Of a stretch of DNA of 57,579 nucleotides, positions 4,656-54,823 are shown one piece after another (positions within the stretch are counted from its first letter, which is position 1; each line of letters opens with the position of its first letter). A program made the position numbers and the translations under genes. The notes below the pieces were generated by a model. That model was not told the DNA's origin and ran no database searches. It saw only the letters and a program-made list of their open reading frames with translations. The DNA is from a virus. Its lineage: Duplodnaviria; Caudoviricetes. The DNA is taken from the IMG/VR virus record IMGVR_UViG_3300025769_000133, positions 1 to 57,579 of that record; one strand, given 5' to 3'.

Positions 4656-6368
4656 ATGCAAGTCGAACAAACAGAGATCAATGGTTTTCAAATTGAAAAC
4701 TTTAATCAGCACGGCTTAGAAGCAGGTAAAACGCAGGGGATTTGTCCCCTGTGTTCGTCTTCTAGGAAACCTGAGAATAAGAAAGCTAAATGTGCTTCTT
4801 ATGATTGGGAGCGTGGTCTCGGTACTTGCCATAACTGTGATAGCAGTTTTCAACTACACACATACAAACGTAAAGGTAAAGCTGAACGTGAATATGTTAT
4901 GCCTGAAGTTAAAAAGGTTGATCTTGTAGTTGATAAAACGTTAGAATGGTTTAAGACTAGAGGAATATCTAAGGATACACTAGATGAATTAAAAGTTAGT
5001 GTTGGTAAAGAATATATGCCTCAGACCGGCAAAGCCGAGAATACTATACAGTTTAATTATTATGTAGGTGGACAACTTACTAACGTTAAATACAGAGATG
5101 GTAGAAAAAACTTTAAGCTTTATAAAGGAGCTGAAAAAGTATTTTATAACATAGACAATATTGTAGGTCATGATACCTGTGTGATAGTTGAAGGTGAAAT
5201 GGATGTTTTAGCTTTACACGAAGCAGGTGTACCAAATGCAATATCAGTTCCAAATGGAGCTACACTTAACACGAACAATCTAGACTATTTAGACAACTGT
5301 ATTGATTATTTTGATGATAAGTCTAAAATAATTATTGCAGTTGATTCAGATGCACCGGGACAAGCCCTACAGACTGAATTGATACGTAGACTTGGAGCTG
5401 AGACTTGTTATATAACTACGTTTGATGATTGCAAAGATGCTAATGAGTATTTAGTTAAGCACTCTAGTAAGGAGCTATTGTCACGTATTACAAATGCAAA
5501 ACCTGTACCGTTAGAAAACGTTACTACATTTAGAGATATAGAAGATGAAATTACAGACTTTGTTAGAAATGGTTTTAAGCGTGGTCACACTATTGGCCTT
5601 GATAACTTTGATAGTATTTTTAGCACATATACTAAACAGTTTATCACAGTTACAGGAATCCCTAGCTCTGGTAAGTCAGATTTTGTAGATCAAATGGTTG
5701 TAGGTTATAATAAAGAGTATGAATGGAAGACAGCGTTTGCTTCACCTGAAAATGCTCCTACATATTTACATGCACACAAGTTAATGCGTAAAGTATGGGG
5801 TGATATGCCTGACAAAGGAGATATTGGTGGAGATAAATGGAATCAAGTAGCTGAACATGTTAATGATAACTTTTTCTTTATTGATATGGAACGTTACACT
5901 CTTGAGTCTGTATTACGTAAAGGAGCTGAGCTCGTGAAACGTAAAGGTATTAAATGTCTAGTTATTGATCCATTTAATAAAGTTAGAGATGTTGACTGTA
6001 CAACAGAGGACGTTAACCGTTACACGATGGAATATCTAACTAAGATTGAAACCTTTGCTAAGAAATATGATGTGCTAGTATTTATAGTAGCTCATCCAAC
6101 TAAAATGTATAAAACACAAGATGGTAAAATTGAAGAACCGACTATGTATAATATTAAAGGTGGCGGCGAATGGTACGATGCTAGCTATCATGGTCTTCTT
6201 GTACATCGTGATTATGAGCTTAAGACAACTAAAGTTAAAGTTCTTAAATGTAAATTTCAGAACCTTGGCGAAAACGGTGCTGAAGCACATTTTACGTGGG
6301 AGCCACGCTCAGGATGCTTCATACCGGAAATAAAACCAGAACTAGAAGAAAAAATGCCATGGGAATAA
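4656..6368 (+). CDS. Primase-helicase (T7 gp4/Twinkle-like)
   Basis: Zn finger CPLC...CHNC; TOPRIM IVEGEMD and DSDAPG; Walker A GIPSSGKS; LVIDP; VAHPTK. Confidence 0.93.
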   Translation: MQVEQTEINGFQIENFNQHGLEAGKTQGICPLCSSSRKPENKKAKCASYDWERGLGTCHNCDSSFQLHTYKRKGKAEREYVMPEVKKVDLVVDKTLEWFKTRGISKDTLDELKVSVGKEYMPQTGKAENTIQFNYYVGGQLTNVKYRDGRKNFKLYKGAEKVFYNIDNIVGHDTCVIVEGEMDVLALHEAGVPNAISVPNGATLNTNNLDYLDNCIDYFDDKSKIIIAVDSDAPGQALQTELIRRLGAETCYITTFDDCKDANEYLVKHSSKELLSRITNAKPVPLENVTTFRDIEDEITDFVRNGFKRGHTIGLDNFDSIFSTYTKQFITVTGIPSSGKSDFVDQMVVGYNKEYEWKTAFASPENAPTYLHAHKLMRKVWGDMPDKGDIGGDKWNQVAEHVNDNFFFIDMERYTLESVLRKGAELVKRKGIKCLVIDPFNKVRDVDCTTEDVNRYTMEYLTKIETFAKKYDVLVFIVAHPTKMYKTQDGKIEEPTMYNIKGGGEWYDASYHGLLVHRDYELKTTKVKVLKCKFQNLGENGAEAHFTWEPRSGCFIPEIKPELEEKMPWE

Positions 6369-6661
6369 AATATATAATAGCAGCGTTATTGTTTACAAGT
6401 TGTAATGTAAGTTCTAAAGTATTAGAAAAATACAACAATGATAACTTCAATTACGTAGGCAGAACAGTAACATATGAAGATGAAGTTGTAGCTAAATTAA
6501 AAGCTATTGAATTATCATACGACGGAGGTGAATTAATATATGAAGCCACGTTTGAATTAACAAACAGCAAATACAACCCTTATGCTATCAACGTTATTAA
6601 AATAGCTAGAATGCATCCCAAAATGAAAGACTGGGATATAGAGGTTGAACTTAAGTATTAA
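6359..6661 (+). CDS. Putative lipoprotein, 100 aa
   Basis: ATG 6359 gives MGIKYIIAALLFTS-C, a signal peptide II with lipobox. Confidence 0.6.
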   Translation: MGIKYIIAALLFTSCNVSSKVLEKYNNDNFNYVGRTVTYEDEVVAKLKAIELSYDGGELIYEATFELTNSKYNPYAINVIKIARMHPKMKDWDIEVELKY

Positions 6662-6918
6662 TGACACCTAAAAAGGTTGATTGGAAACCACCTTTATGGG
6701 ATAAATCAAACACTGAAGCATACCAATGGTGTATAAAACATGGTATCAAAATATACTCCGTGCCTTGCGGTAAAGGTTTTAGCAACAAGACTTGTTGGAT
6801 AGAGGTAAATGTAAACGGAAGAAAACAATTAAGTCCAGGAACTTATGGTCCAACAGAATTATGGCCTAAAGTTATGGAACTATATAAATTTTATTATGAT
6901 AAAAACATTCGCAAATAA
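6661..6918 (+). CDS. Hypothetical protein, 85 aa
   Basis: ORF track; TAATG coupling with upstream gene. Confidence 0.65.
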   Translation: MTPKKVDWKPPLWDKSNTEAYQWCIKHGIKIYSVPCGKGFSNKTCWIEVNVNGRKQLSPGTYGPTELWPKVMELYKFYYDKNIRK

Positions 6919-7609
6919 ATTTAGAAATGCAGACGATGCTTTTTCATATTGGTATCAATGCATAGAACACTATGGTACTGAATTTGCAGGTACAAAAGCT
7001 TTATTTAATATAGGTTTTGAAATGGAAAAGCCAGACCAAATAGATATCAAACAGTCATGGCGTAACTGGAAAAAAGACTATGCGTCAGCAGAGTTTCAAT
7101 GGTATTTAACAGGTGATCCTAACATTAGCAAGTTAGGAGATATATACGGTAAAGTACCTAAGATATGGACTAAGATGGCTAATGAGCTTGGTCAAGTTAA
7201 TTCTAATTATGGGGCACAATGGGAAAGACGTGGTCAATTAGACAAAGTTATTAAAATGCTAAGACGTAACCCAGACACTAGACAAGCTACGATATCTATA
7301 TATGATGGCAAAGAAATGGATCAATATAAATATGATACACCTTGTACCTACGCAATACAGTTCACAGTTGTAAACGACAAACTTAATATGTGTGTGACGA
7401 TGCGATCTAATGATCTCTGGTACGGTTTTTGTAATGATCAGTATTGTTTTGCAAGACTGCAGCAAATGGTTGCAGAGGAAACAGATTACGAACTAGGATC
7501 TTATTTTCATTTTGCACATAATTTACATTTGTATGAAAAAGATTTAGGAAAGTTCTTACCGCAAAAGCCTGATAATCTGCTACAAAGAAAACACGACATA
7601 TATGGATAA
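6896..7609 (+). CDS. Thymidylate-synthase-fold enzyme with dCMP hydroxymethylase-like active site
   Basis: NSNYG, TRQA, DTPCT (catalytic Cys at 7343), MRSNDLWYGFCND, HFAHNLHLY. Asp at the position of E. coli ThyA Asn177. ATG 6896 is the likely start. Confidence 0.85.
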   Translation: MIKTFANKFRNADDAFSYWYQCIEHYGTEFAGTKALFNIGFEMEKPDQIDIKQSWRNWKKDYASAEFQWYLTGDPNISKLGDIYGKVPKIWTKMANELGQVNSNYGAQWERRGQLDKVIKMLRRNPDTRQATISIYDGKEMDQYKYDTPCTYAIQFTVVNDKLNMCVTMRSNDLWYGFCNDQYCFARLQQMVAEETDYELGSYFHFAHNLHLYEKDLGKFLPQKPDNLLQRKHDIYG

Positions 7610-8429
7610 AGAAATAACATATTATTTATACCACATCCCGGGTAAAAAGATTGGTGTAACACGTAATCTTATAGACAGAGTTACAACACAACAGGGATAT
7701 ACCCTAGACGAAATAGAAGTTCTAGATCAAAGCACAGATATCGATTATATATCAAGCCGCGAGTTAGAACTTCAAAAGTCTTACGGCTATCGAGTCGACC
7801 TTAAACCTTATAAACAATTATTTAAAATGAAAATTAACGCAACCGAACAAACCAGCACATTTCCTGTACCTTTAAACAAATTAAAAGGTAGGTTAATGGA
7901 TTCAATAGGATTAACATGGGAAACAATCCATGGTAAATTTGAAGTAACTAAAGAAACAATAGAATGGATAATACAAAATGCATCCGTGTCTATGTTTAAC
8001 AAAAATAGATCATACATATATAACAAAGCTTTCTATGAAAAATTTCTTAACGAAGCTAAGTCAGAAGCTAAGTTATTTTACGAACAGCTTACGAACAGAT
8101 CAAACTCTACTAATGGTGTTTCATATGTTCAAACAGATAACAGGTTTGAATTAATAAGACAATGGGCAAAAGATAGAAACTTATATGATAAAGGCGATAC
8201 AAAAACACAGTTTGCTAAACTAATGGAAGAGTCTGGCGAATTAGCTAGAGCTATATTAAAAGATGATAAGACAGAATTTGTAGATGCTATCGGGGATATG
8301 GTTGTTGTATTAACAAACCTAGCTCATTTAGGCGGTACTAACATTGAAGACTGTATTGACTCAGCGTACGACGTTATTAGAAAGAGAACTGGTAAAATGG
8401 TTAACGGAACATTTGTGAAAAATGACTAA
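7602..8429 (+). CDS. Fusion of N-terminal GIY-YIG-like domain and C-terminal MazG-like NTP pyrophosphohydrolase
   Basis: N-term YYLY...KIGVTRNL..R...RE. C-term KLMEESGELARA...DAIGDMVVVL..LA...AYDVIRKRTGKMVNGTFVK. Confidence 0.75.
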   Translation: MDKEITYYLYHIPGKKIGVTRNLIDRVTTQQGYTLDEIEVLDQSTDIDYISSRELELQKSYGYRVDLKPYKQLFKMKINATEQTSTFPVPLNKLKGRLMDSIGLTWETIHGKFEVTKETIEWIIQNASVSMFNKNRSYIYNKAFYEKFLNEAKSEAKLFYEQLTNRSNSTNGVSYVQTDNRFELIRQWAKDRNLYDKGDTKTQFAKLMEESGELARAILKDDKTEFVDAIGDMVVVLTNLAHLGGTNIEDCIDSAYDVIRKRTGKMVNGTFVKND

Positions 8430-8709
8430 GAAAGAAATAAAATTTAGAGACCCTGTAGTTGAACGCGTTGTTGATAAGTTCGTGGAACGATCAGACGTAG
8501 GGTTTGAAAAATATAAAAAAACACTAGACACTGAACGTAAGACTGGTGTTAAAGACTTAGCTGGATATCTTAATGATGTACAGGAAGAGTTAATGGATGC
8601 GATATTGTATATTCAAGCAGCACGTGAAGAGCTGTCTGAAGCTAAAGACAAAGTCTACGGCGAAAGTATTAACGGTTTACCATATTATGTCTCGGATATT
8701 GCGTCGTAA
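8422..8709 (+). CDS. Small all-alpha nucleotide pyrophosphohydrolase-like protein
   Basis: RSDVGFEKYKKTL...LNDVQEELMDAILY (EExxD acidic helix). Confidence 0.55.
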   Translation: MTKKEIKFRDPVVERVVDKFVERSDVGFEKYKKTLDTERKTGVKDLAGYLNDVQEELMDAILYIQAAREELSEAKDKVYGESINGLPYYVSDIAS

Positions 8710-9139
8710 AAAACGCGGTCCAGTTAGAGCCAAAAAGAAAGTTGTAGATGGTATAGAGTTTAAGTCAGGACTTGAAGCATATATGTATAAAGCTTTAAAA
8801 GAAGCAGGTATACAGGCTGAGTATGAAGGGGTAAAGTATGAACTTACCCCTTCATTTGACTTTAATAACAATAGTTATGAGCGACAAGGAAATGGAAAAG
8901 GCGAGTATAAAAATCGCGGAGGCAAAAAAATACTTAAAATCTCTTATACACCTGATTTTACAGGAAGGGGATTTATCATTGAGTGTAAAGGAAGGGCAAA
9001 CGAATCTTTTCCTATACGTTGGAAACTATTTAAGAAATATGTCAGCGAACGACTTCATAGCGTTACTCTATATAAACCACAAAATCAAAAAGAATGCGAC
9101 GAAACCGTGAACTTAATTCTTGGGAAAAAAAAGACTTAG
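8687..9139 (+). CDS. T7 endonuclease I-like Holliday junction resolvase
   Basis: FKSGLE...YE...YTPDF...IIECKG. ATG 8687 is the likely start. Confidence 0.8.
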   Translation: MSRILRRKKRGPVRAKKKVVDGIEFKSGLEAYMYKALKEAGIQAEYEGVKYELTPSFDFNNNSYERQGNGKGEYKNRGGKKILKISYTPDFTGRGFIIECKGRANESFPIRWKLFKKYVSERLHSVTLYKPQNQKECDETVNLILGKKKT

Positions 9140-9460: not shown

Positions 9461-11323
9461 ATGGAGATATCAAATAAAATATTGTCCGACATAACAGTTT
9501 ACATGAAATATGCAAAATATATTCCTGAACTAAACCGTAGGGAGACGTGGGATGAGTTAGTAACGCGTAATATGAACATGCATATTAAAAAGTATCCTGA
9601 CTTAATAGATGAAATTAAAACAACGTACAAATTAGTATATGAAAAAAAGATTTTACCGTCTATGCGCTCACTTCAATTCGGAGGTAAACCGATTGAAATA
9701 TCACCTAATCGTGTCTATAATTGCGCTTATCTACCTATTGATCATATTGAATCGTTTAATGAGGTAATGTTTCTATTACTAGGTGGTACTGGTGTAGGTT
9801 ATTCTGTTCAAGATCACCATGTTAAAAAATTAGACCCGGTTAACAAGCCTTATAGTAAAAGAACTAGAAGATTTTTAATAGGAGATTCAATTGAAGGTTG
9901 GGCTGATGCTATTAAAGTACTAATGAAATCATATCTTGGTGACAAAAGAAGTTCACGTGTAGAGTTTGACTACTCTGATATACGCCCTAAGGGTGCAATG
10001 TTAGTAACGTCTGGTGGTAAAGCACCTGGACCTCAACCACTTAAAGAATGTATAGTAAAGATAACAGGAGTCTTAGACTCAAAGGAGGATGGCGATACGC
10101 TCTCCACTATAGAAGTACACGATATAGTTTGCCATATTGCAGACGCCGTATTAGCTGGTGGAATACGTCGAGCAGCTTTGATAAGTCTGTTCTCAGCGGA
10201 CGACGAGGAGATGATCTCTTGCAAGTCTGGAAATTGGTGGGAAACAAATCCACAAAGAGGAAGAGCTAATAACTCTGCTGTTCTTATGAGACATAAAATT
10301 ACTAAAGAGTTTTTTATGGATCTATGGAAACGCGTTGAACTATCAGGTGCAGGTGAACCTGGAATATATTTTAATAATGATAAAGACTGGGGTACAAACC
10401 CTTGTTGTGAAATAGCTTTACGACCATATCAGTTTTGTAACTTATGTGAAGTAAACGCTAGTGATATTGAATCACAAGAAGATTTAAATAACAGAGTGAA
10501 AGCAGCTGCGTTTATAGGAACGTTACAAGCTGGATATACGGACTTTCACTATTTAAGAGACGTATGGAAAGAAACAACAGAAAAAGACGCGTTAATCGGA
10601 GTATCGATGACGGGGATAGGATCTGGCACGGTGTTAGGATACGACATGAAGAAAGCCGCTCAATTAGTAAAACGAGAAAACGCAAGAGTCGCGAAAGCGA
10701 TTGGAATTAATTCTGCAGCACGATGCACAACAGTGAAGCCTGCAGGGACAACATCTCTGGCATTGGGAACATCATCCGGTATTCACGCATGGCATAATGA
10801 TTATTACGTTCGTAGAATCAGGGTTGGTAAAAACGAAAGTATATACAAATACTTAGTTGAAAATCATCCATTATTAGTAGAAGATGAGTTTTTTAGACCT
10901 CATGATACCGCTGTGATTAGTATACCGCAGAAAGCTCCTGAAGGATCTATACTTAGAACTGAATCTCCATTTCAATTACTTGAACGTATAAAAAAGGTAG
11001 CTACTGAATGGGTGGCACCTGGCCATAGAAAAGGCAGTAACACTCATAATGTGTCTGCCACGGTTAGTTTAAAAGCTGAAGAGTGGGAAACAGCTGGTGA
11101 ATGGATGTGGGATAACAGAAAATACTACAATGGTTTGTCTGTACTACCGTTTGACGGTGGAACTTATACTCAAGCTCCTTTCGAGGATATTGATGAAGGA
11201 ACTTACATAAATAAGTTGCAACATTTAACTGATATAAATCTAGAAAATGTACTCGAATCCGAAGACAACACTGATCTTTCTGGTGAGCTTGCTTGTGCTG
11301 GTGGTGCTTGTGAAATCACTTAG
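9461..11323 (+). CDS. nrdJ: Class II (adenosylcobalamin-dependent) ribonucleotide reductase
   Basis: RRETWDE, LPSMRSL, YNCAY, GGTGVG, TNPCCEI..QFCNL, TTVKPAGT, C-terminal CAGGAC; no adjacent beta subunit gene. Confidence 0.9.
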   Translation: MEISNKILSDITVYMKYAKYIPELNRRETWDELVTRNMNMHIKKYPDLIDEIKTTYKLVYEKKILPSMRSLQFGGKPIEISPNRVYNCAYLPIDHIESFNEVMFLLLGGTGVGYSVQDHHVKKLDPVNKPYSKRTRRFLIGDSIEGWADAIKVLMKSYLGDKRSSRVEFDYSDIRPKGAMLVTSGGKAPGPQPLKECIVKITGVLDSKEDGDTLSTIEVHDIVCHIADAVLAGGIRRAALISLFSADDEEMISCKSGNWWETNPQRGRANNSAVLMRHKITKEFFMDLWKRVELSGAGEPGIYFNNDKDWGTNPCCEIALRPYQFCNLCEVNASDIESQEDLNNRVKAAAFIGTLQAGYTDFHYLRDVWKETTEKDALIGVSMTGIGSGTVLGYDMKKAAQLVKRENARVAKAIGINSAARCTTVKPAGTTSLALGTSSGIHAWHNDYYVRRIRVGKNESIYKYLVENHPLLVEDEFFRPHDTAVISIPQKAPEGSILRTESPFQLLERIKKVATEWVAPGHRKGSNTHNVSATVSLKAEEWETAGEWMWDNRKYYNGLSVLPFDGGTYTQAPFEDIDEGTYINKLQHLTDINLENVLESEDNTDLSGELACAGGACEIT

Positions 11324-12563: not shown

Positions 12564-12697
12564 TATTTTTTTCTCTTTTTAGGTCTACAACTTCCCTTTG
12601 CTCCAGGTTTAGTACCAGGTACTCTTTCATATCCTAATCCGTAAGGACCACCTGTTTTCCAACAAGTGTTTTTTCTTCCTGTTTTTTTTCTTGCCAT
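12563..12697 (-). CDS. Small basic protein, 44 aa (MARKKTGRKNTCWKTGGPYGLGYERVPGTKPGAKGSCRPKKRKK)
   Basis: Read by hand; TAATG overlaps at both ends. Confidence 0.75.
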   Translation of the reverse strand: MARKKTGRKNTCWKTGGPYGLGYERVPGTKPGAKGSCRPKKRKK

Positions 12698-15600
12698 TAT
12701 TTCTGTAATTCTAGTATTTTTCTAACTCTATCACCTTCGTACTTTAAGGCTTTTATTTCTTTCTCAGATAAACCAAGAGACTTAAGTGAGTCTTTTTGTT
12801 CAGCTGCAGGTAATTCATATAATTCTAATTCTTGTTTATTTCTTTTTTCTACAGGTACTCTATTGTTTTTAAAACTAGTGTTTTCTGTAAAATTAACCTT
12901 TTTAGGTTTAGTTTGTTTTGGCATAGCTTGTTTAGGCTTAGCTTCAGTTTTTGGTTTAGGCTTTTCTTCTGCTTTTTCAACTTCTACTTTTTCATCCTCA
13001 ACAACTATTGGTTCTGTTATTTCTTCTTCTTCTTTTTGTATACTTTTTTCAGTTGGTATTTTAGAAGTATATTTATTGCCAGAAGATTTTTCAGCTTTTA
13101 ATATAGCTTCAACTCTATCGCCCTGTTTTTTCATACCATCTATCTCATCTTGCGAATATCCATGCTGTCTTAAGATATCTTCTTGCTCCGCTTTATTATA
13201 TAAACTAGGGTTTTCTAAAGCTTTGTAGTAATGTTTTTCATCACTTTCTACATCTTTTCTTTGATCTTGTTGTGATTTAGATTCTAATTGCCACTCAGAC
13301 CAACCCATTAATAAAGCTACTCTTTTCCAATTTTCTTGATCTTGAGCTAAAGCATCTTTAACATTTATCATTTTTTGCAGTAATCTATCTAAAGGTATAT
13401 TTGTTACTGAAGCTGTTAACAAAGCACCTGACATGTATAAAGGATTATCAACACTAAAATAATCTTTCATTTTAGGACTATCTTCGTTGTACTCATATGT
13501 GTTCATGCCTCTAACAAACTTAGATACTTTAACATCTACAGGAGGAGCTATGTTTAAGGCTTCAAAAACTGCTTTATAATACTCAGGTCTTGGTTTTTGA
13601 GTTCTATCATATATATCTAAACCAACATCTTTTATCGCTGCAACTATTGATCCACCAACACCCATACCTCTAAGTAAACTAGTTAACATACCGTCTAAAG
13701 TATTTAATGTTTTTTCATCTAGTTCATCTTCATCACCATTTCCTATAGCAGCAAAAACAGCTTGTTGAAGAGCGTTAAACATGATATTTTGTAAAGCTCC
13801 ATAATAAGCTATTCTTGAGATATTACTTTTCCAATCACCTCTACCGTTAGCTAAGTCAGATATTGCTTTACCTATTATTCTATTGTACTGCATAGGTGTA
13901 TTAGCAAATGCAAGTATAGTTCTACCTAAACCACCAGCTTGTTGAGAACTAACTTCCATGGCATCAGAAGACTGTTGAGCTTCTCTTGACAATGCTGTCC
14001 ATTCTTCGTAGGCTTGAGCAGAAGCTTCATCTTCACTCATACCTTTTTTAGTTAAATCTTTTATTCTATTTCTATAAAAAGTAGCACCACCTGAAGCAAT
14101 AGCGAAACTATCAGCAACTTGAGTTATACTAAATCCTTTTCTTAAAAGTAAATTTAAAAAAGCTTTAGGTTTATTACTTTGATTATGTGTTGCATCGAAT
14201 ATTTCAGATTCTGATATATTTATTTTATTACCTCCTCTTCTATCAACTAAGAAATCAGAGTTAAATAAGTTCATAAAATCTTTCCAATACTGAGGTTGGT
14301 TAGCAAACGCCGCCGCTGCTTTAGCTGGATTATTGAAACTCCAATTTATATAGTTAGCTGCAGACAGTGTTTGTAGTATACCCGATCTCATGTTAAAGAA
14401 CATAACCGCACCAACAGAATTATTTAACCAGTCGTAAAATTTATTTTCTTGTGAACTATTACCTATTCTTCTGTTTCTACCAGACTTCATTCTTCTAAGC
14501 ATGTCCTCAAAAGATTTTCTATATTTAGTTCCATATTGATACTCAATAGCATTCATTAATTTACTATCATATCTAGACCCATTGTCTTTACCAAATATAG
14601 TTTCTATATTTTGATTCCATTCACTAAGTAACCTTGCTCTAGTTATTCTACTAACTCCCTGCATTAAGTCTCCCATCATTGAACCAGCTCCCCATTCTAA
14701 ACCTGGATAATAATAACCATCTCCTTTAGTTATATTAACTAACTGATCTGCCATTCTTTTTACAGCAGGATTATTACGAGCCATAGATCTTATTTTTTCC
14801 ATGGTAGTTTTAGGAACTCCATCTGCTTGAATACCTTGATTATCCCAAGCTAATATTCTAATAGCATCTTCATATGTGTAACCACCAAGCCCAGGCGCTT
14901 GTGCGTTTAGTTTAGGTATTGCTTTTCCTTTACCTACAAAATTATCTAATGTAGCATTAAAGTCTGCGAGTAAAGAATTCTTAAAAGCAGCTAGATCATT
15001 AAGAGCTCTAGTATATGGTTTAACTAAGTTATCTTTTAAAAACTCAAAATCTTCATTACCTTCTTGACCTTTACCTAAAAACTTATATAATAAACCAGTG
15101 AAGTTTTGGGTAGATGAAGGCGCCATTGGATTTTCAAACCTTTTACGACCTTTAATTTGTGCTTTTATATTAGATATATCTTTAATAGTTTCAGGATCTT
15201 TCTTAGCTTTTTTAGCTACCATTTCAAATAACCTATTAGCTATTTTTTCACCATCTAAAGCAAATCTCTCTTTAGCTTGTTGAGTTTTAGATTTAACATC
15301 TATTATGTCTAACACATCGCTAACAGCTTCTACATTTGGTAAGTGATCATCAGCAAAATAAAAGTCGTTATAATCTTCGTCTATATATTTACCTATAAAC
15401 CACTCGGCTTTTGCTTGAGGCGAACTATTACCTAATCCTGTTATATTTTCTAAAGGTATATCTACACCTTGAGATTTTAACCACTCGTGAATTGCTTTTG
15501 CTGATTCTGGAGCTCTAGCTGTAAGTATGAATATATCTCTTTTACCTTTTGCATTTTTCATTTGTTTAAGTAAGTCAAACAATGGGCCTTGCTTTCCTTC

Positions 15601-18600
15601 AACAACTCTGTTAAAATCACTAAAATCAAACTCTCCACCTTGCTCTCTTATTTTATCTCCGTCTTTTGCAAACTCTTCAGCAGTTAATTCACCTTTAGTA
15701 CCATCTGGCATTGTGTAAAACACCTTACTATTAGTGTTAGCTATAGTATCATCAAAATCAAATACTCTAGCCTTTTTAGGTTTTGTCTTTCTTTTATTTC
15801 TTGCCTTTTGAGTTAATGCGTCTAAGCTTTTCATCTTACTTAAAACTTCTGGACCTGTTAAATCACCTTCTAATACAACAGGTGCGTTGGTATTCTCTAA
15901 GGCTAATCTATCTTTGCTTTTTGGTTTTTGAGTATCTTCAATTGATTTTATTACATCTTCATTTTGATCAACTACTTCTTGTATAGTTTCTGCAGATACA
16001 GTAGCTTCAGCAGGATCAAAAGTTTCTGTTGGATTAGTTATACTAACTCTATCCTCTGTTTCACCCATCGACTCATACCTAATATTTTGAGCAGTACTAG
16101 TAGAACCTAATAAAGAATCTGTCATTTCAGCACGTACTTTAGGAACATGTGATTGGCTATAGTTAGTAAGTCTTAAAGCTATTTTGTTTTTTAAAGATTC
16201 TATTATTCCTTCTTTTTCTAAATTTGTTTGAGCTTTTCTTAATTTATCAGCTGCTTCCAAAACATCTATAGCCATGTCAGCCATTAAGTTTGAAGCAACA
16301 TCAATGTGTTCACCCTTGTATTTGAGTAAATCTGCTATCTTAGCTTCTATTTTAGCTTTTTTATTTACACGAGTGTTTTTATGAAATTCTTCAGCAAATT
16401 CTTTAGCCTCATCGTAAGAAGCGTGGTTAAAATTAATAACCCAGTCATTATCTTTTTTCTGTGCATCGCTAAGAGAGTTTGAAGTCTCTCCAGTTGATAA
16501 ATTTACAAAAGCAGCTTGAGATTTGTCATTAACCTCTATATCATTAACTCTAGATAAAGCTCGTAAAGACTTTGTATTATTAGTCATAGATTCTAACCAA
16601 CGTAGAAAACCTTTGATGTTTTTACTATCAGAAGCTATACTTTCCGCGGCTTTAGTCATTAGATATTCTATAGCTTTAGTATTAACTTCGTTTGCTTTTT
16701 GTATTTTATCTAATATACTACCTGACTTTACAGTGCCATCCTCGTTTAAACCTAATTGCTCTAGTTTTTCCTCTTTAGATATATCTTTATCTAATATCGT
16801 TTCAGCTCTACCTAGAACACCGTAACCAGCATTCATAAGTTCTATATCTTCAGGGTTGAAATCAAGTTCTTCTTGGTTTTTTAACTTGTTTATAACTTTG
16901 TTTACTTCATCTAATTGACTTTTAAATGGACCAAACCCACCACCTCTTTTCTTACCGCCATCTAAGTAATTGTATATGTAACTAAAAAAGTTTGCTCCTT
17001 TTAAGCTTTCAACTAACTTGCCAGGTAATTTAGAAATAAAATCCATTTGAAACTTATGCATCTCTTTCATAGATGTTTCAGTTCCCTTACCTTTAGACAT
17101 TGTTTTGTTCTCAAAAATATCGTTTGCTTCGTTTTTATAGTCTTGTGGCAAATTAGAATCGTCAATTTTACTTTTAAGTCTTTTCTTATAACCACTAACA
17201 GCGTCTCTAAATAAAGCTTTCAAAGGTTCTATAACATCATCAAACATTTCAAGCATTTCTTCACTAAAGTTTTTACTTAACTTAGTTTCTAAAACATCTA
17301 TCTTATCACCATCTTTACCAGCTTCTCTAACTGCATCAGCAAAAGTTTGATATAGTTTTCGTTGTATTTTTTCAGCAACACCATCTAAAGCAAATCTACT
17401 ATCAGGATTTTTATCTATAACCTCAGCTACTTCATTTATAGTAACTCTAGCTTGATTAAGTAGTTCGTTTCTTTCATTATACATTTCCATAACTTCAGGA
17501 TCAGATAAGACTTCCATAGTAGCGTCTTTACCTAATTCTTTAGCTAATAATGAAACTAAACCGTTTTTCTTGCTATAAGTAGTTCCTTTTTCTGGATTTG
17601 TAAAAGATTCAATAAACTTCTTTTTATTGTAAGGTTGTTTTTCATAAAGAAAATAACCAGCTGTTCTAGCTGTCGCAGCTTCTTTTTTATCTATTAAACC
17701 TTCAGAAACTAGTTTGTCAAATTCTGTAGTACTTAACCTTCTACCTGGTTTATTAAACTCAGGGTATGATTTATTAAATGCTGATTGAGATATCGCTTCA
17801 TAAACCTCTTCACCGTAAGTTTCTAAAAATGGTTCTACACCACCCATTTCATCTATTAGTAATCTAACAGATTGTTCACTTTGGGTTGCATAAGACTTTT
17901 CTAAAGCTTTTTTAAGTTTATTTGTTTTTACTTCTGGTAACACACCTTTGAAAGTATTTACAACACCTTCTTTTACTTTTTCAAATATATCGCTACCTTC
18001 TAATATACCCATTGCTTTTCGCATGTTTATTTTAGCTGCTTTTTTAGGCTCTACTTTTTCTAAACTTTCTTCAAGATTGCTATCTGTTACAAAAAGACTT
18101 GGTCCTTCTTCAGTATCTCTTTGTTCTCTAATATCTTTTTGAATAAGTGGATCAACAACTTGTTGCCATCTAAGAATTAAATCGTTCTTAACTTTTAATC
18201 CAAACGGCATATCTTTAAACTTCTTTTTACGTTTAAAAAATGCGTTATATATATTAGGATATTCAGTACTTCTTAAAGCTTCTTCTATTTCTGATCTAGG
18301 TATAGAGTAAGATAACTTCTCTCCATCTTTTGTCTCAACGGTACCTGTATATTCATTTCCAGTCATCTTAGAATTAACTACAAATTGAACTATAGCTTCC
18401 TTGTTGTTAGCATCTAATCTATTTTCAGCTCTCTGTTTAGCACCTGGACCACTATTAGGATCTTCTATAGTTGCAACGTCTTCAGCATTTTGTATACCTT
18501 TATTTAATTCTTTTATTCTTTCTTGAAGTCTAGATATTTTGTCTTTGTTTTTATCTTTATCCTTTATAAGATCTTTTATTTGACTTATTATCTTTTTCTT

Positions 18601-21600
18601 TTCAGCTTCATTATCTATTAAAGCAAACCTATCTGCATCAACTTCTTCACCTTGACCAATTGGCTCTAAAATACTTTTTGGTTGTTTTCTTTTAGTTTTC
18701 TTAGTAACTGGTGGTGGAGTAGGTTTTTTAGGTATTGTTTTCTTAATCTCTTCTTTAGCAAGTTCCGCATCTTCACTCATTAAATCTAAAAGCTTTAAGA
18801 AATCAACATCTGACGCTTCTTGAGATTCTAATATACCATCTGAGTTTACACTTAATTCAGTAGAAACAATGTCTTTTAACTTGTCTAAATCAATAGATTC
18901 AAGTTTTCCTTCTCTCATGAAATCTCTAGCATTAGCTATAATTTCATCAGCTTGCATTTGCTTGTTCTCTGGATCAAGTTTTATATAAGCATTTATTAAA
19001 TTCTTAAATTCTTGTTCAGACTCTGGACTATCAAACTTTAAAGCACCAGTTTCAAGATCTTTAGCTATTTGTTCTGCTATTTTCAATGTAATGTCATCTC
19101 CAAACTCTTCTTCTAGTACATCCACAAAGTAATGATCTAATTCATGATTAAACTTCGGAAGTGTTTTATTAGCTCTATTAAGTAAGTAAGCTTCTCTAGA
19201 GAATATAAATACTTTATCTTTTTTAATATACTTAGCTTGTTGAGTTATTCCGTCTGATTTTAAAGTAGTTCCGATAGATTCAGCATAAGCTTCAGCCTCT
19301 TCGTTTGTATCGAATATTTTTACATCTACATCTTTATCTTTTGCATTTTCTATTTTATTCAAAAATTCATTTTGACTTTCAGTAAATTGTTGAGATTTAT
19401 CACTAGTAAATTCTTGTTTAACATCTCCTTCTTCAGTTGTTGTAGCTTCAAACAATTGAGCTAATTGATCTTCAATTTCTTTTATTCTTTGCTCTGTTTC
19501 TAGTTTTATATTATAAGGCAACTCACCTTTTAATTTTTCTTTTAAATCATATAACTCACTTTCTAACATTACTTGCTGAGCAGCTACATCATCGCTTAGT
19601 GTTATATCTACTTTTTGAAGTATGTCATGAGTTTTTAACAAAGAAGCTTTTTGCTCATTAAACTTTATCTCTGCTTCTTCAATTTTCTTTTTCTTTACAC
19701 TTTCGTCTACAGCGCTGTTTGTTATTTTGTCTATTGTTTGCGTTCTTAAAACTTCTAATTGTTTCATGTAGACATCAACAACTTCTTTGCTTTTTAATGT
19801 AGACCATTCTGCAACGTGGTTTTCTAGCCATTTCTGTCTATTTCTAACTGATTTAACATTTGATATCACGTTTACAGAAACCATACCTTTGTTAACAATA
19901 CCCATACCCAAAAAAGAAACTTTAGCGGTTTCAATAAGTCTATTGTTATATTCCTCACTACCAAAATCAGGACTGTTAAATAAAGTATCTTCCCAACCTT
20001 TTTCTATTAATTTATTATCTTGAGATTTTTCGATGAGCATATTAACCATTTCCTGAATGGTCTCATCAGCTACATTAAAAGCTAAACCATTTACATATGT
20101 TATAGCTCCTGCTTTTACTAATTGATCAATTTCGTTTTTTACAAATTGTTTTAAACCTATACCTTTAATTTCATTTTTAGCAGCTCTACCAGTTATATAA
20201 GTAGCGAGTCTACTCATAGCTCGTGAGTTGCCTAAAGCTTCTATACCTATTTTATCCAAGTAAGCTTCTATACCTGGTTTAAAAAGCTCTATAATACTTC
20301 TGTCCATAGGAGATAGATTAACTTTCTTACCTGTTTTAGCTTCTAATTCCTTTATACTTTCATCTAAAGAAACCACAGAGTCAACGTGTAATCTAGTTAA
20401 AATACTTATAGGAGTATTTTCTACAGCACTTAAAGTTATAGCTTGTCTTTTGTTTATTTTACCAGCTTTATATGCGTCCATTATCTGCGCATTCTTTCTA
20501 CCTAGCCATTTTAGTCTAGATGGATTATCAACCCAGTTAACTAATCTACCAACTGTGCTAGCTTTACTAGCTCCAGCTGTAGCTACAGTTACTGCTATAT
20601 CAAAAGCAACATCAGTGACTAAGCCTAAAACTTGATACCCAGTTGTATCCCAATCTTGTAAATCATAACTCTGTGCAAATCCACCAGGTTTTATAGTAAG
20701 TTCGTCCTCAATAAATTGATCAACAGCAGCATTCATTGCACTAATGGCATCTTGAGTAAGATCTACCATTTGAGCTTCTAAAGCTGCAAGTTCATCTGCG
20801 CCAACACCTTCTAATATAGCTTCAGTAAGCATGTGTTGTAATTTCGTTATTTCTAACCCTATACTCCCTAATCCAGGTAGTATTTTAGCACCATTAGCTA
20901 GTATTCTGTTGAATACGAAAGCTACATCTTGAGCCCATGTTTGACCTTTTTCACTTATAGCATCGGTCATGTTTTCCATTTCTTGCTCTGCTGCTTTTTG
21001 AGCGCTGTTTAAACTTTGTATTGTTTTGGTTAACATGTTCTTAGAAAAGTCTATCTTATCATTAAGTTTTGACATTTCATCATGAAGACCTATTTGATCA
21101 ACCTTGTTCTCAACCTGTAACCCGCTCATTGGTAGTTGCCCTCTAGAACCTGAAAAATCACCAAGAAAATTATCTCTTTCTCTAATTATTAAAGGTAAAC
21201 CGCCATCAGTAGTTGCGTCTTTAGGGTATGTAAAACTAATTTCATTACCTGGTGAAGTTAAAACTGTTTGCTCTATACCAGCCGCATTAGCTGGTGGGTT
21301 ATTAAAAGAAGTGTTGTCTTTATATATCTGATTACCATCAGCGTCTAAATACTGTACACTATATAAACTTATTGGAGTACTGTTATAAGTAGCTAAAACT
21401 TGTTTATACTTATCTTTTATAACATTATTGTTGTCTATCCTATTATTTATTTCTTCACCTAGTTTAACATACTGTCTTCTAGTTTTACTTCCTTTTTCTT
21501 TACTTTTTGGATCTTTTTCTAGCTCAGCAAATTGTTGTTTTAATTTTTTAGTTTCAGTCTTATAGCTTTGAAAAGAACTAGCCATTTCATTAAGTACATT

Positions 21601-43838: not shown

Positions 43839-44113
43839 TTACTACGCCCTTCTGCAAAACCTTTAAAAGCTCTTTCTTCTTTTACTTCTTCTTTAGGTTT
43901 TCCTTCTAATAAGTTTTCTTCTTCTTCTAGTCTTTTTAATATTTCAAAAGCATCAAATATTGCTAGTTTTTTAGTTGCAGCGGCGTTCTTGAGTCGGTCC
44001 GCAGTCACATCCTCGCCCGTATCTACAATCGGTTCCTTTGCTACTTTTATAAGCTCCTTCACTGCTAATTGCCCAGCTTGGATTATACTCTTTTTCGTTT
44101 CCTTCGTATTCAT
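43835..44113 (-). CDS. Putative terminase small subunit
   Basis: Helical 92-aa protein ATGA-coupled to terL; RLKNAAATKKLAIFDAFEIL. Confidence 0.55.
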   Translation of the reverse strand: MNTKETKKSIIQAGQLAVKELIKVAKEPIVDTGEDVTADRLKNAAATKKLAIFDAFEILKRLEEEENLLEGKPKEEVKEERAFKGFAEGRSK

Positions 44114-44654
44114 GCTTAATTAAAATGTCTTTTGATTTCATACAATATAATAATTGATTGTCAACAACGAATTCCCATTGTCTTAAATCAGGAAAGCTAA
44201 CTAAATCACCATCATTTATACCTAATGACTTTAGTTTTTCGTTTCCATATTTAATAATACCTTTGTTTGGTATTACTTTATCACCTAACTTTTCAGACTT
44301 TAAAGGTTTTATAAAACACCTGTCTAAAAATGCATTATTAACTCCGTTGTTATATAAATACACCTGATCAGGTGCACAAAAATATAAATCCTCTTTAAAA
44401 TAAGATCTACTGTTTTGTTGGACTCCTTTCATATTGTAGAATCTTCTAAAGACATTATGATGAACATATACTATATCACCAGGTTTTATTGGTAGATCAT
44501 AAGCGCTTGGAACACTTATCACCTTAGCCTTTTTATTTATTACTTTAAACTCTTCTATTTTAGTGTTTAACACTAAGGATTTATCACCAACTTTTTTTTC
44601 GTTGTTATATCTTTCGCCAACTGGAGTTATTATGTAGTCATAAAGACTATTCAC
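43971..44654 (-). CDS. GroES-like (probably tandem domain) co-chaperonin-like protein
   Basis: Two GroES-like patterns: DYIITP...AKVISVP...IKPGDIVYV and RCFIKP...GIIKYG...GINDGDLVSF...LYCMKSKDILI. Confidence 0.55.
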   Translation of the reverse strand: MNSLYDYIITPVGERYNNEKKVGDKSLVLNTKIEEFKVINKKAKVISVPSAYDLPIKPGDIVYVHHNVFRRFYNMKGVQQNSRSYFKEDLYFCAPDQVYLYNNGVNNAFLDRCFIKPLKSEKLGDKVIPNKGIIKYGNEKLKSLGINDGDLVSFPDLRQWEFVVDNQLLYCMKSKDILIKHEYEGNEKEYNPSWAISSEGAYKSSKGTDCRYGRGCDCGPTQERRCN

Positions 44655-53028: not shown

Positions 53029-53289
53029 TTATATTACTATTACTATATCTTGTTCTTTAATTACTTTGAACATTTTACTTTCAATTTCAATATTAAAACC
53101 AGCGTGTCTATCATAATAGATTTTATCACCTTTATTTAATAATGTTACATCAGAACCTGGGTTTAATACCTCAGCTTCTTGATATCTAATATCTTCTCGT
53201 TGTTTATCTGACAAGAGTAAACCACCTTTTGTTTCGGTGGTTTTTTCTTGTAGTTCTTTTATTACTATATATTTACCTACTGCTTTCAT
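53029..53289 (-). CDS. groES: Co-chaperonin GroES (Cpn10)
   Basis: MKAVGKYIVIK...TKGGLLL...GDKIYY...VIKEQDIV. Confidence 0.85.
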   Translation of the reverse strand: MKAVGKYIVIKELQEKTTETKGGLLLSDKQREDIRYQEAEVLNPGSDVTLLNKGDKIYYDRHAGFNIEIESKMFKVIKEQDIVIVI

Positions 53290-54823
53290 TTGCTCTTAAA
53301 TTATTAATAACACAATCAGTGGATAATATAGTTGTAGCTACTGAAGCCGCGTTAACTAAAGCACTTTTAGTAACAAGTAATGGATCAATAATCCCTGCTT
53401 TAACCATATTTACTTCTTTTCCTGTAACCACATTTAAACCTTTGTTTTTAACATTGGGATAAACAATTTCAAGACCTGCGTTTGCAAGGATAGTTTCATA
53501 AGGAGCTTTAATTGCTTTTAGCAATACTTTTTCACCTTCAGTCTTAGCCTTTGTATAAACAGACGCATTAAGCAAAGCGATACCTCCTCCTGGAACTATA
53601 CCTTCTTTAATAGCGGCTTTTGTAGCACATATAGCATCTTCTACTCTATCTTTCTTTTCTTTTAACTCTACTTCAGAACTAGCACCAACTTTAACAATAG
53701 CAACCTTACCTGCTAATCTAGCCATTCGCTTTTCTAGTTGAATAACCATGTTAGGGTTTTTTGTTTGCTTTATCTGTTCTTTTAACTCACTTATTATTTT
53801 ATCTATTTCTTCAGAAAAATAATCTTGTTGAATTATAGTTTCAGATGTAGTGCTTACGGCTTTGAAACAACTTCCTAGATGTTCTTCTGTTATAAGATCC
53901 ATATCATCGCCTAAATCCTCATTTATAATAGTAGCACCTGTTATTAAAGATAAGTCTTTTAATGTATTTAACTTGTTTACTCCAAAAACTGGAGCGTCAA
54001 CTACATTAACTTTAATATTGCCTTTCATTTTATTCATGGCTAATGCTGATAAAACAGCTGGCTCCATGTCTGCAATAATCAATAAAGCTTTGTTCTTTTT
54101 TATAACATATTCTAGTACGCCTTGTATTTGCCTTATGTTATCTATCTTGTTTTCTACAATTAATACTAGAGCGTTATCTAATTCTGCTATACCTCTGTCA
54201 TTATTAGTGATAAAGTGAGGATTTTTAAAACCTTTGTCGTATTGAGCTCCATCTACTACTTCTACAACTGTTTTTGGAGCATCGTGTGTTTCCATCATTA
54301 CAACACCAGTCTCGTCAACGGCTTTAAATGCATCAGCAATAATTCGTCCAAGTTCTGTATCATTATTCGCGGATATCGATGCAACTTGGTGGATTGACTC
54401 GCCTGTTACTTCTATTGATATTTTTTCTAAATATTTTATTACAGAATCAACAGCTTTGTTAACGCCTTCTTTAATTGCTCTTATATCTGTTTTTGAGCTT
54501 TTATATGCTTCAGTTAATATAGCGTGTGCTAATACTGTCGATGTTGTAGTTCCATCACCAGCTTCTTTAACGGTTTTTCTAGCTGCTTCTTTTAAAAGCT
54601 TAGCACCCATATTTTCTACTGGATCTAGCAATATAATACTATCTGCTACTGTTACTCCGTCTTTAGTTATTTGAGGGTTTCCTGCGCCGTCTTCTAGTAT
54701 AACACACTTGCCGCTAGCTCCTAAAGTAGAGCTAACAGCTTTAGTGAGTTTCTCTATACCGCTAAATATAGCGGATTTAGCGTCTTCACCGAAGTTAAGA
54801 TGCTTTACTATTGTTTCGTTCAT
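53273..54823 (-). CDS. groEL: Chaperonin GroEL (Cpn60)
   Basis: AVSSTLG, ITKDGVTVA, AGDGTTT, ISANND, EKKDRVEDAICATKAA..EGIVPGGG, GIIDP. Confidence 0.96.
   Translation of the reverse strand: MNETIVKHLNFGEDAKSAIFSGIEKLTKAVSSTLGASGKCVILEDGAGNPQITKDGVTVADSIILLDPVENMGAKLLKEAARKTVKEAGDGTTTSTVLAHAILTEAYKSSKTDIRAIKEGVNKAVDSVIKYLEKISIEVTGESIHQVASISANNDTELGRIIADAFKAVDETGVVMMETHDAPKTVVEVVDGAQYDKGFKNPHFITNNDRGIAELDNALVLIVENKIDNIRQIQGVLEYVIKKNKALLIIADMEPAVLSALAMNKMKGNIKVNVVDAPVFGVNKLNTLKDLSLITGATIINEDLGDDMDLITEEHLGSCFKAVSTTSETIIQQDYFSEEIDKIISELKEQIKQTKNPNMVIQLEKRMARLAGKVAIVKVGASSEVELKEKKDRVEDAICATKAAIKEGIVPGGGIALLNASVYTKAKTEGEKVLLKAIKAPYETILANAGLEIVYPNVKNKGLNVVTGKEVNMVKAGIIDPLLVTKSALVNAASVATTILSTDCVINNLRANESSR

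Follow-up and report, generated by a model that had tools for sequence, protein, structure and literature searches.

Phage T4 encodes a deoxycytidine monophosphate (dCMP) hydroxymethylase (gp42), a deoxycytidine triphosphatase (dCTPase; gp56) that also acts as a dUTPase, a deoxynucleoside monophosphate (dNMP) kinase (gp1) and alpha- and beta-glucosyltransferases, and its GIY-YIG nuclease EndoII (DenA) is annotated as initiating the breakdown of cytosine-containing DNA. This and other described systems are compared here with a three-gene cassette in the IMG/VR virus record IMGVR_UViG_3300025769_000133, the whole of which (57,579 bp; completeness estimate 89%) was analyzed and is referred to as the window. 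The cassette lies on the + strand and consists of a thymidylate synthase (TS) homolog predicted to be a dCMP hydroxymethylase (gene 1; 6896–7609), a predicted three-domain fusion of a T5orf172-like domain, a small middle domain and a MazG pyrophosphohydrolase domain (gene 2; 7602–8429), and a small conserved helical protein (gene 3, termed orf95; 8422–8709). In our reading, to which we give somewhat better than even credence, it forms a translationally coupled operon of the early or replication module that most likely serves the pre-replicative replacement of cytosine by 5-hydroxymethylcytosine (5hmC).

As in T4, a pyrophosphatase and a GIY-YIG-superfamily domain occur in the same gene set, and the logic of the two systems could be the same. 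However, the nuclease-like domain of the window is of the T5orf172 type; no similarity to EndoII could be detected for it, and it forms one protein with the pyrophosphatase. The cassette is one overlapping operon, whereas the T4 counterparts are scattered. We take T4 gp56 to have a dUTPase-like fold that is not homologous to the all-alpha MazG domain of the fusion, so that the parallel to T4 is functional and not genealogical. In agreement with the original prediction, which had seen neither enzyme in the window, no glycosyltransferase was found among the 48 window open reading frames (ORFs) scanned, and no T4 gp1-like dNMP kinase was found in the window and in three relatives of 98–100% completeness by a search that had no positive control.

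In the Z-cluster of cyanophage S-2L (datZ-mazZ-purZ) the modified base is a purine and the modifying enzyme a PurA homolog, whereas the cassette would act on a pyrimidine by means of a TS homolog; a separate HD-type enzyme, DatZ, purges the canonical deoxynucleoside triphosphate (dNTP) in S-2L, and the cluster contains no nuclease-like fusion. The closest cultured TS homologs are those of Bacteroides fragilis phage BF486P2 and its relatives (43.9% identity over 82% of gene 1). The BF486P2 protein shares the DTPC, RSND and FCND signature of gene 1 and carries the annotation deoxycytidylate 5-hydroxymethyltransferase, but BF486P2 differs from the window by two TS homologs with Asp177 (E. coli ThyA numbering is used throughout), one of them adjoined by a conventional dut gene. 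Xanthomonas phage Xp12, which has 5-methylcytosine (5mC) in its DNA, encodes a TS homolog (L109, 45326–46195) that keeps Asp177 and Asp169 and clusters on a quick tree with the ThyA-like Leu143 enzymes of 24 loci related to the window. It differs from the gp42-like enzyme of the window by Asn143, and its neighbors are genes for a dCMP deaminase, a dihydrofolate reductase and a HAD hydrolase, with no MazG fusion beside it. The T5orf172 homing endonucleases of ICP1 vibriophages (Odn and others) appear to share the domain family of the N-terminal domain of the fusion, a family with a catalytic Glu according to passages of PMC10448857; they are sporadic selfish genes with DNA-binding repeats, whereas the domain in the window is constant within its clade, fused to MazG and, in its own copy, below Pfam detection. 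Finally, passages of the MetaGPA study (PMC8670742) report the same Pfam pair, PF00303 and PF01503, on contigs that experimentally hold modified cytosine, with Asp177 marking the modified set. This is a statistical association at the level of domains, and those passages describe no T5orf172 fusion, orf95 or pyrophosphatase enzymology.

The cassette is thus of a known kind, namely TS-homolog-based cytosine replacement with a purge of the canonical dNTP. The concept was anticipated, since the pairing of N177D-type TS with PRA-PH has been seen statistically (passages of PMC8670742) and MazG-like triphosphatases have been proposed as degraders of unmodified nucleoside triphosphates (NTPs; passages of PMC7824862). 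Relative to the literature searched, four features are new. One is the T5orf172-middle-MazG architecture, for which, as for its enzymology, no description was found there and which does not occur in the PMC7824862 passages. The others are that this architecture is constantly paired with exchangeable enzymes of the 5hmC and 5mC types, that orf95 is conserved as a partner gene, and that a phage dNMP kinase is apparently lacking.

The proteins of the cassette

The overlaps between the three genes, as originally described, were confirmed. Genes 1 and 2 share an 8-nt ATG/stop overlap at 7602–7609 (ATGGATAA), and genes 2 and 3 are joined in the same manner at 8422–8429 (ATGACTAA).

Gene 1 matched PF00303 with 105 bits (cut-off 24.3) and phrog_160 (E 6.7e-43), and its best matches among solved structures were a bacterial TS (6auj; E 3.1e-18) and T4 dCMP hydroxymethylase (1b49; E 1.2e-17). 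The diagnostic positions were read from an alignment of gene 1 with the ThyA of E. coli and the gp42 of T4, both as given in annotated records. The catalytic Cys146 aligns with C146 of E. coli and C148 of T4. Position 143 is Asp (L143D; “DTPC”, versus “DFMC” in T4 and “LAPC” in E. coli), Asp169 is retained (“RSND”), and position 177 is also Asp (N177D; “FCND”, versus “FRND” in T4 and “PFN” in E. coli). The pattern of Cys146, L143D, D169, and N177D is that of T4 gp42. According to rules given in passages of PMC13326640, N177D entails dCMP as substrate, L143D or L143E a hydroxymethyl instead of a methyl product, and D169N a 5-hydroxy-dCMP synthase; Asp177 as a mark of cytosine-type TS homologs is also found in passages of PMC8670742. 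The acidic residue at position 143 would admit water to the methylene intermediate, a rule that is correlative. Gene 1 is not a canonical ThyA, as it has D177 and D143, lacks the C-terminal ThyA segment and reached at best 88.6 against a cut-off of 327 with the NCBIfam ThyA models, and its retained Asp169 also sets it apart from the 5-hydroxy-dCMP synthase type (RB69 gp48 and DLP3 gp80; D169N). The gp42-like residue pattern thus identifies gene 1 as neither a thymidylate synthase nor a 5-hydroxy type enzyme. Its full gp42-type signature bears out the dCMP hydroxymethylase-like enzyme of the original prediction, and on this basis gene 1 is predicted to be a gp42-type dCMP hydroxymethylase making 5-hydroxymethyl-dCMP (5-hm-dCMP).

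An AlphaFold2 model of the whole fusion, calculated from 30 homologs (predicted local distance difference test score, pLDDT, 90.4), indicates that the gene 2 product is composed of three domains, the first resembling T5orf172 (a GIY-YIG subfamily), the second small and the third a MazG pyrophosphohydrolase. The first of these (residues 5–73; 7614–7820; + strand; model pLDDT >90) has a beta-beta-alpha-beta-alpha topology (beta7–12, beta16–20, alpha23–30, beta39–44, and alpha47–60). The window's own copy has no Pfam family match at E ≤ 1, but T5orf172 (PF10544) matched 15 of 23 relatives of the domain (33–73% identical; best E 1.4e-7) and MUG113 matched nine of them. T5orf172 was also found in 11–48% of the members of the neighbor clusters of the fusion in the language-model Atlas. 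The canonical core of GIY-YIG domains is a Tyr in strand 1, a Gly in strand 2, an Arg in helix 1, and a Glu in helix 2. In the model of the fusion these positions are held by Y10, G18, R26, and E54, which, together with K16, are kept in 77 of 79 copies, the remaining two being cut by contig ends. Weak rows named GIY-YIG appeared in a BFVD search with the fusion model (E 3.1e-3, 5.9e-3, and 2.2e-2); Foldseek against the PDB and a wide structure search with the whole model gave matches to the MazG domain only, which filled the lists. A PDB profile search with the N-terminal domain family returned only chance rows (E 0.43 and 1.4) and no nuclease, and hhalign of this family against T4 EndoII, I-TevI, SegA, and SegG revealed no detectable similarity (probability 0.2%). 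Passages of PMC10448857 describe T5orf172 as a subfamily of GIY-YIG and report, for one case, a nuclease activity that depends on Glu. Since the Tyr/Gly/Arg/Glu core is retained, the N-terminal domain probably acts on DNA, by either binding or cutting it. Of the parallel to DenA that had been drawn for the cassette, the presence of a GIY-YIG-superfamily-like domain is supported, but a similarity to EndoII, Seg proteins or I-TevI is not.

The middle domain (residues 76–166; 7827–8099; + strand) was modelled as a small alpha/beta domain that ends in a long helix and is followed by a low-confidence linker (residues 167–178). It has conserved residues T84, T86, F87, W122, S130, and Y140, and some database proteins begin at fusion residue 76. 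No family was found for it, the fold searches being dominated by the MazG domain.

The C-terminal domain (residues 181–275 plus the stop codon; 8142–8429; + strand) is of the all-alpha NTP pyrophosphohydrolase type. Its assignment to MazG is based on a hidden Markov model match above cut-off (PF01503), a modelled fold of four helices and a C-terminal hairpin after the disordered linker, and acidic metal-binding motifs; all 79 copies share five acidic residues without exception. Matches in fold include the MazG enzymes S-2L MazZ and the dCTPase RS21-C6/DCTPP1. The domain thus appears to be catalytically competent, and the GIY-YIG-like/MazG-like fusion expected for gene 2 was found in the form of a T5orf172-like domain joined to an apparently active MazG domain. 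Designed “Pizza” repeat proteins that came up in a single-sequence PDB search of the fusion were rejected as an artefact of summed weak repeat matches.

In the phage database 1242 records matched the fusion, none of them over 80% or more of its length, and the best rows covered the C-terminal half only. The PHROGs of this MazG subfamily, phrog_715 and phrog_1994, are widespread in unrelated phages, and in BFVD, phrog_1994 and phrog_14652 many “DNA-binding protein” entries from Staphylococcus, Streptococcus, and Lactobacillus phages pair another N-terminal domain with the same subfamily. A general theme may be that MazG domains of this type are joined to domains directed at DNA. In Paenibacillus larvae phages (H71–H91), stand-alone MazG-like genes of this subfamily, with 35.9% identity to residues 135–275, adjoin DNA cytosine methyltransferase genes.

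The product of orf95 was modelled by AlphaFold2 as a helical hairpin (helices 11–31, 35–41, and 46–80; core residues 8–72; pLDDT 77.6). Every one of the 81 copies has R23, S24, G27, K30, Y31, Q54-E-E-L-M-D-A60, and Y63. The EExxD motif that had suggested a second pyrophosphatase-like protein is included in this set, but none of the methods tried placed orf95 in the MazG family. There was nothing relevant in Pfam at E ≤ 0.1 and no match in NCBIfam; the best row of a PDB profile search was an unrelated protein (E 0.69), hhalign against the fusion family gave a probability of 0.3%, and PHROG matches were restricted to families of unknown function (phrog_11184; E 1.1e-7). An Atlas search yielded unnamed viral clusters only, the nearest named one, YosH_C, scoring 0.76 and thus under the lead threshold. 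MazG membership is accordingly unsupported, and orf95 is best described from its model as a conserved helical protein that is not demonstrably a pyrophosphatase. Complex prediction for the fusion and orf95 gave a score of 0.00 against a mark of 0.32, which counts neither for nor against binding.

Linkage of the three genes and readings of the cassette

Database searches with the fusion and with orf95 gave thousands of matches each. A first set of 16 viral loci with the fusion included 15 with a full-length relative; a TS homolog is located upstream in 13 of these 15 (the locus edge truncates the remaining two) and orf95 downstream in all 15. A second set was obtained with the orf95 alignment, which matched at least 567 viral contigs, and the best 80 were examined. 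The fusion is present as one ORF at 78 of these 80 loci, the remaining two being one edge-cut locus and one without the fusion, and a TS homolog at 71 (six loci are edge-cut and three lack a TS homolog internally). All 71 TS ORFs have Asp177 and Asp169, and N177 occurs in none. They belong to two types: 47 carry Asp143 like the window's enzyme, and 24 carry Leu143 and a ThyA-like C-terminus (examples in the TS slot are L016:2054–2878, L067, L076, and L088). The 24 Leu143/Asp177 enzymes are predicted from these residues to be dCMP methylases (5-methyl-dCMP synthases); one of the Leu143-type enzymes passes the NCBI ThyA model cut-off despite Asp177. On the quick tree, whose deep placements are uncertain owing to the long branches of T4, BF486P2_27, and Xp12, three subclades of Leu143 enzymes group with E. 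coli ThyA and Xp12 and are separate from the clade of the window's enzyme. These subclades point to repeated TS replacement in one slot, each time by a cytosine-type enzyme, and suggest that the slot was refilled several times while the fusion and orf95 stayed. Moreover, four loci of another phage type, which has a different terminase family (phrog_2 or phrog_3717) and other neighbors, show the permuted order orf95 (67 aa), TS homolog (L143, D177), fusion (242 aa), and exonuclease (L080:5001–6687, L091, L092, and L099).

Three catalogued relatives without a TS homolog also lack the T5orf172-MazG fusion, which counts in favor of cytosine replacement. No fusion match was obtained in the uncultured podovirus MW202828, which has ThyX instead of a TS-family gene (this search had no positive control), or in Maribacter phage Panino, which has no TS-family gene. 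Elemovirus elemoB, a cultured Flavobacterium phage likewise without a TS-family gene, has, some 10 kb away from its orf95 homolog, only a weak stand-alone PRA-PH/MazG-like ORF (E 0.0014). The orf95 homolog (elemoB 10524–10979) is annotated as “ABC-type histidine transport system, ATPase component”, likely a misannotation, and elemoB also carries a DUF1064 gene.

In the proposed mechanism the TS homolog, whose active-site signature is observed, would convert dCMP to 5-hm-dCMP. The hydrolysis of dCTP to dCMP and pyrophosphate would be the task of the fusion's MazG domain, judging from context and analogies. This role is suggested by the exclusive pairing with cytosine-type TS homologs, the precedents of T4 gp56 and S-2L MazZ, and the joint occurrence of PF01503 and TS domains on modified contigs. 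Hydrolysis of dCTP would feed the TS homolog and at the same time remove the canonical competitor, much as gp56 does with another fold and as MazZ does for PurZ, whose monophosphate substrate it provides (passages of PMC8342488). Like the cutting of unmodified DNA that the original prediction also assigned to the cassette, the dCTPase activity is an inference. As a lead, the class II-type ribonucleotide reductase (RNR) encoded two genes downstream may be triphosphate-reducing, with dCTP as its direct product, in which case a dCTP-to-dCMP step would be needed; a homolog of the RNR-like gene in a Roseobacter phage is annotated as ribonucleoside-triphosphate reductase. Host kinases would then raise 5-hm-dCMP to the triphosphate, as no phage dNMP kinase was found, and the virion DNA would be unglycosylated. 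In sister lineages, the ThyA-like Asp177 enzyme, a predicted 5-methyl-dCMP synthase, would take the TS slot beside the fusion and orf95.

The co-occurrence of the three genes, which had been proposed as a check of their functional connection, largely held, since the linkage survives both the exchange of the TS type and the permutation of gene order; the exceptions belong to a group of observations that weigh against cytosine replacement. Two relatives, with records that are 88 and 83% complete, have both the fusion and orf95 but no PF00303 match in the whole record, in a search whose positive control worked, and the fusion is thus not strictly dependent on a phage TS homolog. The 100% complete L081 record has orf95 without a TS homolog and without the fusion, and elemoB (L108) has its orf95 homolog (42% identity, inside a 151-aa protein) without a TS homolog. 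Most of the 80 loci represent one phage clade (primase-helicase 72–97% identical), so that the raw counts overstate the independent support and the linkage perhaps is partly inherited. The structural neighbors of the MazG domain differ in substrate (dGTP, dCTP/5-Me-dCTP, and phosphoribosyl-ATP) and its sequence similarity to PDB entries is marginal (1vmg; E 8.8e-4); the specificity of the domain therefore cannot be read from homology. The combination of Asn143 and Asp177 in the 5mC phage Xp12 makes position 143 only a correlate of the product, which weakens the product calls and means that the link between Leu143 and a methyl product is not universal. In addition, the search for a dNMP kinase, limited as stated above, was negative, though T4, RB69, and DLP3 use such a kinase for the modified monophosphate (passages of PMC13326640).

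Some of these points would be accounted for if the fusion acted outside the modification pathway, as a general house-cleaning enzyme, a dUTPase or another regulatory or anti-defense nucleotide hydrolase, and if its position merely reflected the clustering of nucleotide genes in the replication module. We consider this unlikely. It would fit the two relatives that hold the fusion without a TS homolog, the descent of most linked loci from one clade and the spread of the MazG subfamily (phrog_715 and phrog_1994) in the 1242 phage records, often with other N-terminal “DNA-binding protein” domains, and a dUTPase role is possible since scans of the window revealed no trimeric dUTPase. However, the adjacent TS homologs are of the cytosine type in 71 of 71 cases and a true thymidylate synthase in none, across about four TS lineages as estimated from the quick tree; the trio is retained in permuted order in a different phage type; and PF01503 and TS domains co-occur on contigs with experimentally modified cytosine (passages of PMC8670742).

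A low probability, comparable to that of a house-cleaning function, is also assigned to the possibility that the T5orf172 and middle domains derive from a homing endonuclease or recombination module that was domesticated, or else act as a DNA-binding tether or autoregulator, in either case without a part in discriminating modified from unmodified DNA, and that the MazG domain alone serves the pathway. T5orf172 domains of phage ICP1 are homing endonucleases (passages of PMC10448857), and the family has been proposed to function in recombination or as an alternative resolvase (passages of PMC7824862). Furthermore, one member of the N-terminal domain family has NUMOD1 and I-HmuI NUMOD-like DNA-binding domains in place of the middle domain, and the locus lies among genes for Erf, an exonuclease, a primase-helicase and a DUF1064 resolvase-like protein. 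On the other hand, homing endonuclease genes typically are sporadic, whereas in these phages the N-terminal domain is constant, always fused to MazG and equipped with an invariant core in 77 of 79 fusions (two being cut), and the N-terminal 175 residues of the fusion match 792 database representatives at E ≤ 1e-3. The domain may equally discriminate cytosine from modified cytosine or have a role derived from recombination or homing.

A more far-reaching proposal, which we regard as rather improbable, is that the fusion is a single-polypeptide enzyme for the exclusion of canonical cytosine, in which the dCTP purge would be coupled to the cleavage or marking of cytosine-containing DNA. Because its TS partner is swappable, such an enzyme would serve 5hmC and 5mC lineages alike; orf95 would be a regulatory or specificity partner, and the three genes would amount to a portable kit for cytosine substitution throughout the genome that works without a phage dNMP kinase or glycosyltransferase. 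The least probable of the readings, a minimal T4-like self/non-self system in which the TS homolog modifies cytosine, the N-terminal domain is a DenA-like nuclease acting on cytosine-containing (host) DNA and the MazG domain and orf95 both purge dCTP and dUTP, agrees with the TS signature, the locus linkage, the GIY-YIG-like topology and core residues of the N-terminal domain, the single Glu-dependent nuclease case in its subfamily (passages of PMC10448857), the annotated function of T4 EndoII and the invariant EExxD motif of orf95, but is doubtful in view of the lack of detectable similarity to EndoII and the failure of every method to place orf95 with MazG.

If cytosine replacement by the cassette is correct, a very abundant aquatic phage group replaces cytosine with a three-gene kit that departs from the T4 paradigm in having a MazG-fold enzyme where T4 has a dCTPase of the dUTPase fold, in its fused nuclease-like domain and in that no phage dNMP kinase was found. 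The natural exchange of hydroxymethylase-like and methylase-like enzymes beside the same fusion offers a ready comparative experiment on the exclusion of canonical nucleotides. Should the MazG enzyme prove specific for dCTP and spare 5-substituted dCTP, it would be a mirror-image counterpart of DCTPP1 and useful as a reagent. For metagenomics, cytosine replacement in this group would be relevant since modified genomes are under-sampled by some library methods.

Genomic context of the cassette

The overlaps extend beyond the cassette. The small upstream ORF orf85 (6661–6918; + strand), for which only a weak PHROG match was obtained (phrog_5945; E 0.0012) and which is syntenic in most relatives, overlaps gene 1 by 23 nt (gene 1 starting at 6896), and an overlap of 23 nt also joins orf95 to a DUF1064 endonuclease or Holliday-junction-resolvase-like gene (8687–9139; + strand; PF06356, E 2.7e-11; phrog_190, E 9e-15) that starts at 8687. 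Judged from this arrangement, the overlapping chain from orf85 through the DUF1064 gene comprises five translationally coupled genes. The DUF1064 gene follows orf95 in 14 of the 15 loci L002–L016, L008 stopping at orf95, and in nearly all of L021–L100, apart from the four with permuted gene order and a short one that likewise stops at orf95. The class II (B12-type) RNR-like gene (9461–11323; + strand; phrog_367, E 3.2e-129; B12-dependent RNR insertion domain PF21995, E 9.2e-7) is a downstream neighbor in most relatives as well.

Contigs from RNA libraries, which derive from relatives and are 90–95% alike, span orf85, the TS homolog and the start of the fusion; examples are a record of 1376 nt aligned to 6165–7832 and one of 602 nt that crosses the junction at 7602. 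As RNA libraries can hold DNA, these bridging contigs are no proof of a transcript. RNA-library contigs of relatives also join position 6367 to 6666 and thereby bypass orf121 (6296–6661), an ORF for which L006 alone among 15 close relatives has a counterpart. Its pattern resembles that of a variable insertion, placed here between orf85 and the gene for the primase-helicase.

The cassette belongs to a block of + strand genes for replication and nucleotide metabolism, which begins with a ligase truncated by the start of the window and continues, in this order, with a DNA-binding protein, a sigma-like factor, Erf, an exonuclease, the primase-helicase, the cassette, the DUF1064 endonuclease, and the class II-type RNR. 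The ATP-dependent DNA ligase ORF (1–779) is open at its 5' end and matches positions 274–500 of the 634 positions of phrog_114; the record thus begins inside the ligase gene, consistent with the completeness estimate given above. A family A DNA polymerase was not seen among the 48 window ORFs scanned, and PF00476 was not found in the three relatives of 98–100% completeness (G001–G003), in a search confined to this polymerase family; the related Maribacter phage Panino has an annotated DNA polymerase.

The rest of the record is a minus-strand block with an ORF of 3696 aa, virion proteins, the portal, the terminase, lysis genes, and GroEL/GroES-like genes. By its large terminase, the nearest catalogued genomes are MW202828 (63.5% identity) and Flavobacterium Elemovirus phages (46.1%), and the 87 records matched by the terminase also include Cellulophaga, Tenacibaculum, and Maribacter phages. 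The virus, an uncultured aquatic podophage, is Elemovirus-like by its terminase and related to the Flavobacterium Elemovirus phages. The ORF of 3696 aa (12697–23787; minus strand) is the largest of the record and may encode a giant virion or ejected protein; its residues 2665–2867 match phrog_415, “polynucleotide kinase” (E 1.6e-8), and MW202828 has a counterpart of 3859 aa. A GroEL-like chaperonin (53273–54823; minus strand; phrog_5725, E 1.1e-136) and a GroES-like protein (43971–44654; minus strand; phrog_13932, E 1.7e-22) are also encoded, and both genes are annotated in MW202828 too.

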